A stretch of DNA of 64,000 nucleotides. Origin: Escherichia coli 042 (GTDB lineage: Bacteria; Pseudomonadota; Gammaproteobacteria; Enterobacterales; Enterobacteriaceae). The stretch lies in the NCBI RefSeq assembly GCF_000027125.1, contig NC_017626.1; one strand, 5' to 3'. The notes below the pieces were generated by a model. That model did no database searches and was not told the origin of the DNA. It saw only the letters and a program-made list of their open reading frames with translations. The translations under genes were made by a program, and so were the position numbers. Positions 39,000 through 51,599 of the stretch are shown piece after piece. The number at the start of each line of letters is the position of its first letter. Position 1 is the first letter of the stretch.

Positions 39000-39767
39000 T
39001 TAAGCCTGTTTAGCCGCTTCTGCAGCTTTAACGATCACTGCGAAAGCGTCAGCTTTCAGAGAAGCACCGCCAACCAGCGCGCCGTCGATGTCTGGCTGAG
39101 CAAACAGTTCTGCAGCGTTAGACGCGTTTACAGAGCCGCCGTACTGGATGATCACTTGTTCAGCGATGTTAGCGTCAACTTTAGCGATGTGGTCACGGAT
39201 GAATTTGTGAACAGCCTGTGCCTGCGCCGGAGTTGCAGATTTGCCAGTACCGATTGCCCATACTGGTTCGTAAGCGATTACCGCACCTTCGAATGCTGCA
39301 GCACCCTGAGTTTTCAGTACCGCGTCGATCTGACGTGCGCAAACTTCTTCAGTTTTGCCCGCTTCGTTTTCAGCTTCGGTTTCACCGATGCACAGAACCG
39401 GAGTCAGACCCTGCTCTTTCAGCACCGCGAATTTTTTCGCGATCAGTTCGTCAGACTCTTTGTGGTAAGTACGACGTTCAGAGTGGCCGATGATGATGTA
39501 CTGTGCGCCGATGTCTTTCAGCATAGCAGCAGAGGTTTCACCGGTGAATGCGCCGGACAGGTTCAGGTCCACGTTTTGCGCACCCAGCATGATGTGGCTG
39601 CCTTCAGCTTCGCGCTTCGCCATATCGATGTACATTTCCGGTGGTGCGATTGCAACCGCACAGCCAGCAACACCTGCCAGCTCTTTACGCAGGTTAGAAA
39701 CCAGCTCGTGAACCATGTGGCGGCTGCCGTTCAGTTTCCAGTTACCCATCACTAAAGGATGTCGCAT
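39000..39767 (-). CDS. tpiA: Triosephosphate isomerase
   Basis: 255-aa product [15 protein letters not shown]...[14 protein letters not shown]... Confidence 0.97.
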
Positions 39768-39874: not shown

Positions 39875-40474
39875 TCATTTATTCAAACCTTCAAGCGATT
39901 CAGATAGCGCCAGCTTAATCGGTTCAACAGCGAAGGTCAGCCCCTTTTCGCCGTTGTCCGCGACTACATAACGCAGTGCACCTTCTGTCTCGGTGTAATA
40001 ACGTTTGTTTTTCCCCGCCGTTAGTAGCGACTGCAGTTTTTTCTGGCTTTGTGTTTTGGTCATTAATGGGGTGAGTGTGCGGATCACCGCTGCCATGTAT
40101 TCCTGAGCTTTCGCTTTCGCGGCTTTTTGCTCTGGCCCCTGGATGGGTAGCCAGGTCATTTGAATGCTTTTGATTTTTAAGGTACCGCGCTCCAGCGCTG
40201 TAGAAGCATACAAGTTCTCATTAATTTTACTGGCAGCACGAGTGAGATTGGCTTTGTCGGGACTGCTGTCGATGGCACGAAATTCGTTCAGTGGCAGGCT
40301 GGGATTCTGGCTGTTAAAGTCTTCTCGAAACTGGCTGATGGAGAGATCGAAAGTAGGGGCTCCAGCCAGCAGATAAGGCGCGGTCGTTGCCGTATCTGGT
40401 GTTTGTGCATGCGCCGTTGTTGTAACGGTTAATGCAGAACATAAGAGAAAAAACAGCGTACACCCTGGCTTCAT
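39875..40474 (-). CDS. yiiQ: Secreted DUF1454-family protein
   Basis: 199-aa product with signal peptide. Confidence 0.85.
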   Translation of the reverse strand: MKPGCTLFFLLCSALTVTTTAHAQTPDTATTAPYLLAGAPTFDLSISQFREDFNSQNPSLPLNEFRAIDSSPDKANLTRAASKINENLYASTALERGTLKIKSIQMTWLPIQGPEQKAAKAKAQEYMAAVIRTLTPLMTKTQSQKKLQSLLTAGKNKRYYTETEGALRYVVADNGEKGLTFAVEPIKLALSESLEGLNK

Positions 40475-40574
40475 TGACAGTACCTTTTGTTATGACTGGC
40501 TCCGATTAAAACGATATCTGTCGCCCTTGTCAAAAGGGTAGAATCCTGGAAAAGACAACCATCAAGGAACTTAC

Positions 40575-41015
40575 ATGACCATACAGCAATGGTTATTCTC
40601 ATTTAAAGGGCGTATTGGACGCCGTGATTTCTGGATTTGGATAGGCCTGTGGTTCGCATGCATGCTGGTGCTTTTCTCACTGGCGGGTAAAAATTTACTC
40701 GATATTCAGACCGCGGCGTTTTGCCTTGTGTGCTTGCTCTGGCCAACAGCGGCAGTAACCGTTAAGCGCTTGCATGATCGCGGGCGTTCCGGCGCATGGG
40801 CATTTCTGATGATTGTGGCGTGGATGCTGCTGGCGGGTAACTGGGCGATTTTACCGGGTGTCTGGCAATGGGCGGTGGGGCGTTTTGTCCCGACGTTGAT
40901 TCTGGTGATGATGCTTATCGATCTTGGTGCGTTTGTTGGCACACAAGGCGAAAATAAATATGGTAAAGATACCGAGGATGTGAAGTATAAAGCCGACAAT
41001 AAATCAAGTAATTAA
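40575..41015 (+). CDS. yiiR: DUF805-family inner membrane protein
   Basis: 146-aa product with hydrophobic segments. Confidence 0.85.
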   Translation: MTIQQWLFSFKGRIGRRDFWIWIGLWFACMLVLFSLAGKNLLDIQTAAFCLVCLLWPTAAVTVKRLHDRGRSGAWAFLMIVAWMLLAGNWAILPGVWQWAVGRFVPTLILVMMLIDLGAFVGTQGENKYGKDTEDVKYKADNKSSN

Positions 41016-41226
41016 CCTTTAATATATCTCTTACTGCTATTTTTTTCCGGGATTGTTATTTCCACGATGCAAATGACAATACCCGGAAAATCCTTCTGAA
41101 CTCTTCACCTTAAGCAATATCAAAAAAAATGGTAATCCATAAGATCATTACTTGTTTGTTCTTCCCTTAACGGCGCATTATTCTTAAGTCGTAATCGACA
41201 GAGAGGCGAATATACAGAGGTGCCCT

Positions 41227-41526
41227 ATGAAAGATGTCGTAGATAAATGCAGTACTAAAGGATGTGCGATTGATATCGGTACGGTGATTGATAACGACAA
41301 CTGTACCAGTAAGTTTTCGCGCTTTTTTGCCACCCGCGAAGAAGCAGAGTCCTTTATGACCAAACTGAAAGAGCTTGCCGCCGCTGCATCCTCTGCAGAT
41401 GAAGGGGCCAGCGTGGCCTATAAGATTAAGGATCTGGAGGGGCAAGTTGAGCTTGATGCGGCCTTCACCTTCTCATGCCAGGCCGAGATGATTATTTTTG
41501 AGTTATCACTGCGTTCGTTAGCTTGA
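41227..41526 (+). CDS. yiiS: DUF406-family protein
   Basis: 99-aa product upstream of uspD. Confidence 0.8.
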
Positions 41527-41552
41527 TGGAGTTGCTTTAGAAGGAGTTAAAC

Positions 41553-41981
41553 ATGGCTTATAAACACATTGGCGTGGCAATTTCCGGGAATGAAGAAGAT
41601 GCCTTACTGGTGAATAAAGCCCTGGAGCTCGCCAGACATAATGACGCTCACCTGACGTTAATTCATATTGATGATGGCTTAAGCGAGTTGTATCCGGGTA
41701 TCTACTTCCCTGCAACAGAAGATATTCTTCAATTGTTGAAGAATAAGTCGGATAACAAGCTGTATAAACTGACGAAAAATATTCAATGGCCGAAGACAAA
41801 ACTGCGTATTGAACGCGGAGAAATGCCGGAAACACTGCTGGAAATTATGCAAAAAGAGCAGTGCGACCTCCTTGTCTGTGGTCATCACCACTCATTTATC
41901 AACCGTTTGATGCCGGCATATCGCGGGATGATCAATAAGTTGAGTGCGGATTTGCTCATCGTGCCGTTTATCGATAAGTAA
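41553..41981 (+). CDS. uspD: Universal stress protein D
   Basis: 142-aa UspA-family product. Confidence 0.9.
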
Positions 41982-41985
41982 CCGC

Positions 41986-42732
41986 TTACCAGTAATGCTC
42001 CGCTGTCATATGGCCCGGTCGGCGACGTAAATGTTTCGTCATCTGCCGGGTCTCTTTTAGCAACTGTTGTGTATCGCGCACCATCTGTGGATTGCCGCAC
42101 AGCATCACATGGCTGGTTTCTTTATTCATCGGCAGGCCAATCGCGCTTTCCAGTTCACCACTTTCAATTAATGCCGGTATCCGTCCGGTGAGCGACCCCG
42201 CTGCCGTTTCCCGACTGACCACCGTCTGAATGCGCAGTTTGCCTTCGTAGCGTTTTTCCAGTTCTTGCATCAGTGGCAAATAGCTTAAGTCGGCGGCATA
42301 ACGTGCGGCGTGAACCAGGACCAGATTTTTGAAGCGATCTAAATCTTTGCCCAGTTGCAGAATCGATAAATAAGGGCCAATCGCTGTACCGGTTGCCAGC
42401 ATCCATAGCGTTTCGCAATCTGGTACTTCATCCAGAACAAAGAAGCCAGCTGCTTCGCTAACCACCTGCACTTCATCGCCTGGTTTCAGTGCCGCCAATC
42501 GTGGGCTTAATTTGCCATCGGGGACGGTGACCAGGTAAAACTCCAGATCGGGATTATCGGGCGAGTTAACATAGGAGTAGGCGCGCTGGACGCGTTCACC
42601 GTCGATTTCAAGGCCAAGCTTGGTAAATTGCCCGGCGGTAAACGGAAGCACGGGGGCGTGAACGGTGAGACTAAACAGGGCGTCGGTCCAGTTCTGCACT
42701 TTAGTGACTTTGCCTGTTACCCAATCAGCCAT
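41986..42732 (-). CDS. fpr: Ferredoxin/flavodoxin-NADP+ reductase
   Basis: 248-aa product MADWVTGKVTKVQNWTDALF... Confidence 0.95.
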   Translation of the reverse strand: MADWVTGKVTKVQNWTDALFSLTVHAPVLPFTAGQFTKLGLEIDGERVQRAYSYVNSPDNPDLEFYLVTVPDGKLSPRLAALKPGDEVQVVSEAAGFFVLDEVPDCETLWMLATGTAIGPYLSILQLGKDLDRFKNLVLVHAARYAADLSYLPLMQELEKRYEGKLRIQTVVSRETAAGSLTGRIPALIESGELESAIGLPMNKETSHVMLCGNPQMVRDTQQLLKETRQMTKHLRRRPGHMTAEHYW

Positions 42733-48675: not shown

Positions 48676-50007
48676 TTATAGGATAAAACGGCTCAGATCT
48701 TCATCTGCCACCAACGCATCCAGATGTTTGCTCACATAATCTGCGTCAATAGTGATGGTTTGACCGCTTAAATCGCTGGCGTCGTAGGAAATCTCTTCCA
48801 TTAAACGCTCCAGAACGGTATGTAAACGACGAGCACCGATGTTTTCGGTAGATTCGTTCACCTGCCATGCCGCTTCCGCGATGCGCTTAATACCGGAGTC
48901 GGTAAACTCGATATTTACGCCTTCAGTCGCCATCAGTGCTTTGTACTGCACGGTGATAGAGGCATTCGGCTCGGTCAGAATACGCTCGAAGTCGCTGGTG
49001 GTCAGTGCCTGCAGCTCAACGCGGATTGGCAGACGACCTTGCAGTTCCGGGATCAGGTCAGACGGTTTCGCAATCTGGAACGCGCCAGAAGCGATAAACA
49101 GAATGTGGTCAGTTTTGACCATCCCGTGTTTGGTGGAAACGGTGCAACCTTCTACCAGCGGCAGCAGGTCACGCTGAACACCTTCACGAGAAACATCCGG
49201 ACCGGAAGACTCGCCGCGCTTACAGATTTTGTCGATTTCGTCGATAAACACGATCCCGTGCTGCTCAACAGCGTCGATAGCGTCTTGCTTCAGCTCTTCC
49301 GGATTCACCAGTTTCGCCGCTTCTTCTTCAATCAGCAGCTTCATGGCGTCTTTGATTTTCAGCTTACGTGCTTTTTGCTTCTGGCCGCCCAGGTTCTGGA
49401 ACATGGACTGCAGCTGGCTGGTCATCTCTTCCATTCCCGGAGGAGCCATAATTTCAACGCCCATCGGTGCTGCGGCAAGATCGATCTCGATTTCTTTGTC
49501 ATCAAGCTGGCCTTCACGCAGTTTCTTGCGGAATGCCTGACGAGCAGCGGACGGTTCCTGCTGCTGTTCGGTCTGTCCCCAGTTGTTTTTAGCAGGTGGG
49601 ATCAGCACGTCGAGAATACGTTCTTCTGCCAGTTCTTCAGCGCGATAACGGTTTTTCTCGATAGCCTGTACGCGTACCATTTTCACGGCGGCATCGGTCA
49701 GATCGCGAATAATAGAATCCACTTCCTTACCGACATAGCCCACTTCGGTGAATTTGGTCGCTTCAACTTTGATGAACGGCGCATTCGCCAGCTTAGCCAG
49801 ACGACGGGCGATTTCAGTTTTACCGACACCGGTCGGGCCGATCATCAGGATATTTTTCGGGGTCACTTCATGGCGCAGCTCTTCGTTGAGCTGCATGCGA
49901 CGCCAGCGGTTACGCAGAGCAATCGCCACAGAACGCTTGGCGTTGTCCTGGCCGATGATGTGCTTATCCAGTTCGCTGACGATTTCGCGTGGGGTCATTT
50001 CAGACAT
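48676..50007 (-). CDS. hslU: ATP-dependent protease ATPase subunit HslU
   Basis: 443-aa AAA+ product with Walker A GPTGVGKT. Confidence 0.97.
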
Positions 50008-50016
50008 GGGAGATCC

Positions 50017-50547
50017 TTACGCTTTGTAGCTTAATTCTTCGATGGTGTGGAAATGGTTGGTATAGATGCAAATGTCGCCTGCAATATCCAACGCCTTTTC
50101 AGCAATTTCACGGGCGCTAAGTTCAGTGTTTTCTAACAGCGCGCGCGCCGCAGCCTGGGCGTAAGGGCCGCCGGAGCCGATAGCAATAAGATCGTTTTCT
50201 GGCTGCACCACGTCACCGTTACCGGTGATGATAAGCGATGCAGTTTCATCCGCGACTGCCAGCAGTGCTTCAAGTTTGCGCAGCATGCGATCGGTACGCC
50301 AGTCTTTTGCCAGCTCAACGGCGGCTTTGACCAGATGGCCCTGATGCATTTCCAGTTTGCGTTCAAACAGTTCGAACAGCGTAAAAGCATCCGCAGTACC
50401 GCCCGCAAAGCCCGCGATGACTTTGTCGTTGTACAGACGGCGGACCTTTTTCACGTTGCCTTTCATTACGGTATTGCCCAACGTGGCCTGACCATCACCA
50501 GCGATGACCACATGGCCGTTACGGCGTACGCTTACTATAGTTGTCAC
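50017..50547 (-). CDS. hslV: ATP-dependent protease peptidase subunit HslV
   Basis: 176-aa product [20 protein letters not shown]... Confidence 0.97.
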
Positions 50548-50615
50548 GAGCTGACCCCTTGGTTACGAATACAGAGTACAAACCCCGTACAAAAGTACGG
50601 GGCATAATGCAATTA

Positions 50616-50644
50616 TAGATGGGGGGGATTTTGAGGGTTTCAAC
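50616..50644 (-). promoter_or_regulatory. Sigma-32 heat-shock promoter of hslVU
   Basis: Reverse strand reads gTTGAAAccctcaaaatccCCCCCATCTA, matching the sigma-32 -35 CTTGAAA and -10 CCCCATNT consensus with about 13-nt spacing; a perfect stem-loop ccccgtac-aaaa-gtacgggg follows in the leader (50583-50602). Confidence 0.7.
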
Positions 50645-51599
50645 CCCCGGCGGCGAGCCGAATGCAGTTTGTATGACCCGCCATCTTCAAGCGATTGAGG
50701 GTGCTGTCTGCGTTCTCTTTGCCTTTCACCGGGCCAATGACCACACGATTCCAGCCATTGTTGGTGGTGATCTTCGAGTCAAAGCCTTCAAACGCCAGCT
50801 GAGCACGTACCGTCTCTGCCTGTTCCGCGCCTCTGAACGAACCGCACTGCACCATCCAGCGGCGTTCGTCTTTTTTCTCCGCCGTCGGTTTTGGCGCGTC
50901 AGCGGCACGAGCAACTGGCGCAGCTTGCTGCGGCTTCGACTGCGCAGTCGTGTGCGCAGGAGTTTGCAGCAGATCCTGGTACGGCTGCTGAGAAGAAGCC
51001 GGTTTAGACTGGCGCGGTTGCGCCTGTACCGGTGCGGCTTGCGACGTACGCGTCTGCTGCTGCCAGCTTTGTTCAGTCGTACGCGACTGCTGAGCCAGGC
51101 GTTGCTGCTCCGCTAATTGCTGCGCCTGACGCTGGCGCTGTAGCGTTTGCTGACGCTGTTCCGGCGTCTGTTCATTCCACGGAACTTCAACCAACTGCGT
51201 TGGCTGCTGGCGCATATCAGCCTGCATTTGCTCAAGGAGCTGGCGTTGTTCTGGTGTTAGTTGCTCCGGCGTTTTCACTTCACCACCGGCAGAAGGTTCT
51301 GTAGGCGCACGCACACCTGGCTGGCGACTTTCCAGCTCTTTGATGTAGCGCCAGCGTTCTTCTGGTTTTGGTGGTAGTCCGTTTCCGGTCACTTTCTGGC
51401 TTTGCAGCGTCTCGGACTCTTCTTTCTTGTGATGCGTAATGAAGTACAGACCACCGATAAAGGTCACAAGAACGGCGGCAGCAATAGCGACCATAGCGGG
51501 AGAAACCGCAGGCAGATTTCGTTGCTTTTTCCGTGAGGTGCTCTTTTTTCGCCGCGAAGGTGCCGGTTGGCTGCGGCGTACATAATCTCGTTGTGCCAC
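50640..51599 (-). CDS. ftsN: Cell division protein FtsN
   Basis: 319-aa product with Gln-rich periplasmic linker and C-terminal SPOR domain. Confidence 0.95.
   Translation of the reverse strand: MAQRDYVRRSQPAPSRRKKSTSRKKQRNLPAVSPAMVAIAAAVLVTFIGGLYFITHHKKEESETLQSQKVTGNGLPPKPEERWRYIKELESRQPGVRAPTEPSAGGEVKTPEQLTPEQRQLLEQMQADMRQQPTQLVEVPWNEQTPEQRQQTLQRQRQAQQLAEQQRLAQQSRTTEQSWQQQTRTSQAAPVQAQPRQSKPASSQQPYQDLLQTPAHTTAQSKPQQAAPVARAADAPKPTAEKKDERRWMVQCGSFRGAEQAETVRAQLAFEGFDSKITTNNGWNRVVIGPVKGKENADSTLNRLKMAGHTNCIRLAAGG

Follow-up and report, generated by a model that had tools for sequence, protein, structure and literature searches.

A stem-loop in the yiiR-yiiS spacer of Escherichia coli as a probable 3'-end element of yiiR transcripts

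Main finding

The inverted repeat at 41043-41090, located in the yiiR-yiiS spacer of Escherichia coli 042, is best explained, with a probability of roughly 60%, as a stem-loop in the yiiR 3' untranslated region that defines and protects the 3' end of transcripts from the + strand. All positions refer to the window, i.e., the whole stretch of 64,000 nucleotides from contig NC_017626.1 that was analyzed. Several features point to this reading: stability beyond that given by base composition, location 28 nt after the yiiR stop codon, a published Term-seq end directly behind the stem, a fold kept among alleles, the lack of a U-tract, and a C-over-G skew downstream. Against it stand the weak, single-condition, orphan character of the mapped 3' end, the lack of a nearby Rho region, the finding of only one compensatory pair, and the absence of the hairpin 3' of yiiR in Citrobacter and Kluyvera.

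In the proposed mechanism, the repeat would be transcribed within the yiiR 3' untranslated region and, as RNA, would fold into a stable stem-loop, which would fix and protect the 3' end of the + strand transcript 7 nt past the stem and would insulate the yiiS-uspD promoter from yiiR transcription. The same DNA overlaps a region bound by AraC-family regulators (GadX, AppY, and YdeO) that act on yiiS-uspD, independently of the RNA role.

Genomic context

The hairpin is surrounded by the E. coli chromosomal gene order tpiA, yiiQ, yiiR, yiiS, uspD, and fpr. The genes are placed as follows (ORF list and RefSeq annotation of K-12):

39000-39767, - strand: tpiA
39875-40474, - strand: yiiQ
40575-41015, + strand: yiiR coding sequence, encoding a DUF805 membrane protein
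41227-41526, + strand: yiiS coding sequence, the first gene of the yiiS-uspD operon
41553-41981, + strand: uspD
41986-42732, - strand: fpr

Positions in the window equal those of NC_000913.3 minus 4071740, as confirmed on the NC_000913.3 record itself. The spacer between yiiR and yiiS spans 211 bp and contains zero annotated features in the RefSeq K-12 record. The two genes are co-directional, and none of the genes in the ORF list converges on the hairpin. The yiiS-proximal part of the spacer forms a block that is nearly invariant within Escherichia, with the hairpin falling outside of it:

41118-41226, + strand: yiiS upstream block, presumed promoter and leader (from the upstream sequences of 12 loci in other genera)

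The elements AAAAATGGTAATCC ... ATTA.TGGTT ... TCTTATC ... GAGGT of this block are common to Escherichia, Kluyvera, and Klebsiella despite the differing neighborhoods of yiiS in these genera. Just 5' of the block, Klebsiella carries a perfect TATAAT, which E. coli lacks at this place. In addition, the T-run and left arm of the repeat (41041-41055) are 73% complementary to CAATATCAAAAAAAA at 41115-41129 and could, as an alternative, pair weakly with the A8 run that starts the conserved yiiS block; this is probably a chance match.

Predicted fold and its stability

The predicted fold of the repeat comprises a stem of ~21 bp, interrupted by one bulge (A41081) and one 1x1 internal loop and closed by a 3-nt apical loop. 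Its exact core, identified by the repeat search, measures 9 nt, with TTTTCCGGG (41043-41051) perfectly complementary to CCCGGAAAA (41082-41090). Next to the core, ATTGT (41052-41056) is paired with ACAAT (41076-41080), which leaves A41081 bulged; further inward, the arms continue with the UAUUU/AAAUG pairing, including one G.U, and with two apical pairs. Owing to the bulge, an ungapped inverted-repeat scan picks up the 9-nt core only. The fold is composed of the following parts:

41040-41046, + strand: seven-T run, the first three T unpaired and the last four forming the 5' base of the stem (sequence and fold)
41043-41061, + strand: left (5') arm of the stem-loop, on which the minimum free energy (MFE) and centroid structures agree, with the 9-nt core from the repeat search
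41062-41070, + strand: apical part with the C/C 1x1 internal loop, two weak pairs, and the 3-nt loop (fold and alignments)
41071-41090, + strand: right (3') arm with the bulged A41081 (fold and alignments)

The A-run at 41087-41090 does not constitute a free terminator tail: its four A are paired with four T of the T-run at the base of the stem. Both strands thus read T-run, stem, and A-run in that order, and neither carries a 3' U-tract. An inverted repeat had been noted in this spacer at 41041-41092 by the initial annotation and is indeed present in the sequence. The stem of about 13 bp described there proved longer, and the supposed 19-nt loop pairs further, down to the three apical nucleotides; similarly, the T-run and A-run exist but belong in part to the stem base instead of merely flanking it.

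The MFE of the RNA is -22.8 kcal/mol for the + strand (z = -5.4) and -21.2 kcal/mol for the - strand (z = -4.4), while DNA folding gives -14.0 and -15.2 kcal/mol (z = -5.0 and -6.2) for the + and - strands, respectively. The observed RNA energy was reached by none of 5000 dinucleotide shuffles on the + strand and by one of 5000 on the - strand. The raw energy itself is not unusual, as ~5% of 65-nt windows in the whole, GC-richer stretch fold at or below -22.8 kcal/mol, and a raw MFE scan of the whole stretch is uninformative for this reason. The hairpin is exceptional only against its own composition of 38% GC and as a nearly uninterrupted dyad. A search of positions 40000-42200 against Rfam at a permissive threshold gave no match on the hairpin and two chance-level matches elsewhere (E-values of 1.8 and 4.7).

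RNA 3' end and downstream sequence

Term-seq data place an RNA 3' end at position 4112837 of NC_000913.3 on the + strand (Adams et al. 2021, PMC7815308, supplementary files 1 and 3), with the flanks CCGGGATTGTTATTTCCACGATGCAAATGACAATACCCGGAAAATCCTTC[T]GAACTCTTCA. The position corresponds to U41097, 7 nt past the last stem pair, and the published flank is identical to the window; the element thus marks an RNA end. The end is weak (average read count of 1172) and of the class 'orphan'; it appears in the M63 glucose sheet only and not in the two LB conditions, and the study assigns it to the ends that precede ORFs, at a distance of 130 nt from the yiiS start (PMC7815308). Within several hundred bases, the tables of the same study contain no other 3' end on either strand. 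Its supplementary file 2, which reports an LB experiment, i.e., a condition in which the 41097 end is undetected, lists no Rho termination region near the hairpin. Two features follow the stem:

41091-41097, + strand: single-stranded tail UCCUUCU (Adams et al. 2021 and the coordinate map)
41091-41190, + strand: C-rich, G-poor tract with 23 C and 11 G, a possible Rho-loading region

The C-skew of the latter tract (0.35) belongs to the top 0.45% of 100-nt windows. The transcript ended at 41097 is presumably the yiiR mRNA. Its end could arise when Rho terminates transcription further 3' and exonucleases then trim the RNA in the 3'-to-5' direction as far as the hairpin, or else when the hairpin acts as a weak, U-poor intrinsic terminator. 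Termination by Rho followed by trimming would be the most likely route because the stem is not followed by a U-tract and because C-rich, G-poor RNA lies downstream; we favor it over weak intrinsic termination by roughly two to one.

Two further candidates in the hairpin region were discarded. The only local - strand match in a consensus promoter scan, from 41079 to 41052, occurs at chance frequency. A 10-codon ORF at 41067-41099 (MQMTIPGKSF), ending at the mapped 3' end, is devoid of a Shine-Dalgarno sequence, and in E. albertii the frame is interrupted.

Conservation and sequence variation

A sensitive blastn search located the 76-nt hairpin segment in 5425 of 5426 complete E. coli genomes, each time at a single place; six of the 5425 lack an intact 401-bp region. 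Eight distinct alleles were compared, originating from E. coli genomes, a divergent "E. coli" lineage, E. albertii, and metagenomes. The fold of the + strand is retained in all eight, with energies between -22.2 and -23.0 kcal/mol (i.e., within 0.8 kcal/mol), while the energies of the - strand range from -17.7 to -28.1 kcal/mol. Beyond the genus, the hairpin is absent from the genera compared.

The alleles differ considerably in sequence: about 11 differences inside the hairpin separate K-12 from E. albertii, and the apical part (41062-41070) constitutes the most variable portion in the alignments. The bulged base 41081 is A, G (in many E. coli), or deleted (in E. albertii). The substitution A41073G converts a U-A pair to U.G and C41083T converts a G-C pair to G.U, while T41054C together with A41078G replaces U-A by C-G and constitutes the single compensatory pair, observed in three lineages. 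Altogether, among the 21 pairs, one is changed on both sides and four on one side with a standard (wobble-compatible) pair kept. Standard pairs occupy 93.5% of the cells for these 21 pairs, compared with 32-54% when the partners are slid by 1-3 columns; the shuffle control for covariation is marginal (13/500). Introduced alone, T41054C costs 4.2 kcal/mol and A41078G only 0.3 kcal/mol, which fits a path via a G.U intermediate. The TTT-to-CCC change in E. albertii breaks three pairs on the + strand, whereas it would be wobble-compatible on the - strand, where the hairpin is stronger (-27.7 kcal/mol); the assignment of the strand from substitutions is therefore mixed.

Pairing is kept while the sequence changes, and RNA structure gives the best account of the symmetry. 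The hairpin evolves faster than the adjacent yiiS promoter block, and its bulge varies freely, as expected where structure is constrained and sequence is not. Two independent ChIP data sets are centered on the left arm, so there is a role at the DNA level as well, which could add to the conservation.

Regulator binding at the hairpin DNA

YdeO gives a ChIP-chip and EMSA signal on the spacer upstream of yiiS, and its overexpression raises yiiS and uspD about 5-fold, with yiiR unaffected (PMC4222967). The published YdeO box consists of inverted ATTTCA hexamers separated by 9-21 nt, and a box is reported in Figure 4 of that paper. The exact hexamer ATTTCA is absent from the yiiR-yiiS spacer, and the closest hexamers, each with one mismatch, lie at 41058 (+) and 41097 (-), 33 nt apart as against the published 9-21. 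For AppY, a ChIP-seq summit with 10.7-fold enrichment was reported at 4112789 (v3); overproduction of AppY induces yiiS (3.2 in Table 1 and 2.99 in the RNA-seq supplement), and the AppY motif was reported absent from the peak in the yiiS spacer (PMC10057817). Our search for the AppY motif gave no match better than 6/8 positions. The summit itself maps to 41049.

The GadX data are given in v2 coordinates, for which we assumed an offset of 1977 to v3, supported by a consistency check against tpiA and the glpF-zapB spacer. The GadX ChIP-exo peak P41 (v2 coordinates 4110801-4110821) is listed for yiiS-uspD with a signal-to-noise value of 43; the entry records neither a change of expression upon GadX knockout nor binding of RpoS (PMC4918353, supplementary table). 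The peak and the corresponding motif match are placed as follows:

41038-41058, no strand: GadX ChIP-exo peak P41 (PMC4918353, placed via the assumed v2-to-v3 offset)
41049-41068, + strand: best match in the spacer to the GadX/GadW motif AKGKCTGWTWTTWWYMYVAK, 16/20 positions

The peak covers 21 bp over the T-run and left arm only, and its center lies within about 1 bp of the AppY summit. The 16/20 match, although not a full one, belongs to the top 0.023% of positions in the whole window. The published 20-nt GadX/GadW motif is asymmetric; counted by hand, the right arm agrees with it at 13/20 positions and the motif region of E. albertii at 11/20, with pairing kept in the latter.

These data raise the question of whether the dyad is primarily a DNA operator through which GadX, AppY, and YdeO regulate yiiS-uspD, with the RNA hairpin as a by-product. 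The coincidence of the GadX and AppY centers in two independent studies, the YdeO signal on the spacer, the response of the operon to YdeO and of yiiS to AppY, and the rank of the motif match across the left arm and loop all speak for it. Nevertheless, the exo footprint is limited to one side of the dyad, the motif is asymmetric and poorly matched by the right arm, the AppY motif is reported missing from its own peak, a clean YdeO box is lacking in the spacer, and no expression change is recorded for the GadX knockout. Moreover, E. albertii differs in the motif region and keeps the pairing, and paired T-to-C and A-to-G changes on the two arms are predicted by base pairing, not by the fixed specificity of a protein. 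An operator as the primary function is therefore unlikely. Binding of the regulators at the hairpin DNA is likely real, whereas the dyad is not explained by these proteins, given the one-arm footprint, the asymmetric motif, the poor match of the right arm, and the change of the E. albertii motif with pairing kept. The protein-binding palindrome suggested by the initial annotation holds insofar as protein is bound there; the palindrome itself is probably not what is recognized.

The two functions might also be combined, with the left arm as DNA constituting an upstream GadX/AppY/YdeO site that activates yiiS-uspD and the whole dyad as RNA stopping or trimming transcripts from yiiR or from a promoter at ~40977. 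We regard such a dual role as rather improbable. If it were true, the bound regulator and transcription from upstream could have mutual effects, be it by a roadblock, by occlusion of the promoter, or by an RNA of ~121 nt released at 41097.

A possible leader of yiiS-uspD

The possible promoter at ~40977 is also the basis of a further alternative, in which the hairpin would serve as an attenuator or form the 3' end of a short RNA, within a long yiiS-uspD leader that starts inside yiiR. The GadX table puts peak P41 at +71 from a transcription start site, which leads to v2 position 4110740, i.e., 40977 in the window (PMC4918353), and a SELEX peak of the sigma-38 holoenzyme lies at the same v2 coordinate. 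A sigma-70-like site (TTGGCA, 17 nt, TATGGT) is present at 40936-40964 on the + strand, inside the 3' end of yiiR. An RNA from 40977 to 41097 would measure 121 nt and end in the hairpin, and Adams et al. place the mapped 3' end upstream of the yiiS ORF. This start site follows, however, from arithmetic on the GadX table, and conservation upstream of yiiS sets in only at about 41118, pointing to a proximal main promoter. The Rfam search yielded no match and no alternative anti-terminator fold was found. Taken together, a leader of this kind is improbable, and the stem-loop at the end of yiiR transcripts is preferred.

Comparison with terminators and other known elements

Like intrinsic terminators, the yiiR hairpin occurs shortly after a stop codon and is followed, at the distance usual for intrinsic termination, by an RNA end 7 nt past a stable stem. 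Unlike them, it lacks a U-tract (about five or more U in 8 nt) and a G-C-rich base: the T-run is located 5' of the stem and pairs with the A-run, so that the stem base consists of four A-U pairs. The tail of the + strand, UCCUUCUG, contains 4 U in 8 nt and scores 1.63, while the tail of the - strand, AAAUAGCA, scores 0.21, compared with 5.4 for a T8 tail, and a consensus terminator scan called no terminator at the hairpin. Usual terminator stems are also shorter than that of yiiR, ~21 bp being much longer than typical. For a bidirectional terminator, one would look for a 5' A-tract together with a 3' U-tract, RNA ends on both strands, and convergent transcription, none of which was found. The initial annotation, which had raised this function, is borne out insofar as the hairpin marks an RNA end on the + strand, but there is no listed - strand 3' end, no convergent gene, and the runs stand in the wrong order. 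A canonical intrinsic terminator, bidirectional or not, is therefore very unlikely.

A closer parallel is offered by the stem-loops that Dar and Sorek (2018) described at Rho-dependent 3' ends. These have neither a U-rich tail nor an upstream A-tract, show enrichment of C over G downstream, and shield the transcript against PNPase and RNase II once diffuse termination has taken place farther 3'; their stem length distributions resemble those of intrinsic terminators (PMC6061677). The yiiR hairpin is likewise located directly upstream of a precise 3' end, without a U-rich tail or an upstream A-tract, and has the U-poor flank of the stem and the C-over-G excess (23 C vs 11 G) that characterize a protective stem-loop of this class. 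It differs from the class in that its stem of ~21 bp, made up mostly of A-U pairs, probably exceeds the average length, and Rho dependence and trimming are putative here.

Similarly to REP/BIME elements, the hairpin is a palindrome that lies between genes, follows the 3' end of one of them, and could block exonucleases; unlike them, it is single-copy in each E. coli genome and does not contain the REP consensus. It resembles GadX/GadW boxes and the sites of AraC-family proteins in the in vivo occupancy of the left arm, the partial motif match, and the response of the operon to overexpression of YdeO and AppY. In contrast to GadX/GadW, AppY, and YdeO sites, only one arm with an asymmetric motif is involved, and the site is not kept in E. 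albertii although the pairing is.

The hairpin is thus an ordinary element at a gene boundary, a single case of a known type that had not been annotated before, and both lines of functional evidence were already contained in published supplementary tables. Its only mildly unusual aspect is the presence of a regulator site and a transcribed hairpin on the same DNA. For E. coli K-12, it adds a boundary, absent from the annotation, that separates yiiR from the stress operon yiiS-uspD, and it explains an 'orphan' Term-seq 3' end. The GadX and AppY peaks from the literature are seen to lie on a hairpin that is transcribed instead of in a plain promoter. These results are of use for operon annotation and for the design of yiiS-uspD promoter constructs; they open no new question. 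A mention of yiiS in a paper on riboswitch entropy concerns a different locus.

Distribution outside Escherichia and insertion sequences

As far as sequence comparison reaches, the hairpin is confined to Escherichia. No homologue was found 3' of yiiR in Citrobacter koseri, C. freundii, C. rodentium, and Kluyvera cryocrescens, or upstream of yiiS in Kluyvera, Klebsiella, and Edwardsiella, where only the sequence from ~41118 onward (AAAAATGGTAATCC...) is common. In the latter three genera, yiiS sits at a place other than yiiR-fpr. In the three Citrobacter species and K. cryocrescens, tpiA-yiiQ-yiiR directly faces fpr, without yiiS-uspD at this place, which indicates either an insertion of yiiS-uspD in Escherichia or its loss elsewhere. 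The junction between yiiR and fpr is formed there by a short spacer with unrelated REP-like hairpins or by overlapping genes.

It is highly improbable that the hairpin is a functionless relic persisting by chance, e.g., junction sequence from the insertion of yiiS-uspD between yiiR and fpr: its restriction to Escherichia, the arrangement in Citrobacter and Kluyvera, and the toleration of IS1 right at its base would fit, whereas the nearly constant + strand energy across lineages with about 11 differences, the compensatory pair, the retention in 5425/5426 genomes, and the coincidence with a mapped RNA end and ChIP peaks would not.

The Citrobacter spacers contain REP-like palindromes (GCCGGATAAGGCG...) and GCCCGG...CCGGGC hairpins at the same place relative to yiiR as the E. 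coli hairpin:

L017 1948-2022, L018 1930-1992, and L019 1927-2050: spacers with REP-like and GCCCGG hairpins in Citrobacter loci

In two unrelated strains, MSB1_1D and WEM25, the base of the hairpin carries an IS1 insertion; the two copies are oppositely oriented, and their sites lie within 1 bp of each other. The target duplication in MSB1_1D is AAAATCCT. The two cases suggest that this place is a local hot spot for IS1:

41087-41094 in the window; L002 2225-2240 and 2990-3010; L025 205-225: IS1 insertions

The uspD-fpr junction

At the distal end of the operon, the stop codons of uspD and fpr are only 4 nt apart in E. coli. A strong - strand 3' end with ~50,000-63,000 reads was reported in all three conditions at 4113600, which corresponds to 41860, together with a Rho termination region at 4113576 (Adams et al. 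2021, PMC7815308). Both lie within uspD, in antisense orientation. The fpr transcript appears to end ~126 nt into the convergent uspD gene (~41836-41860, - strand).
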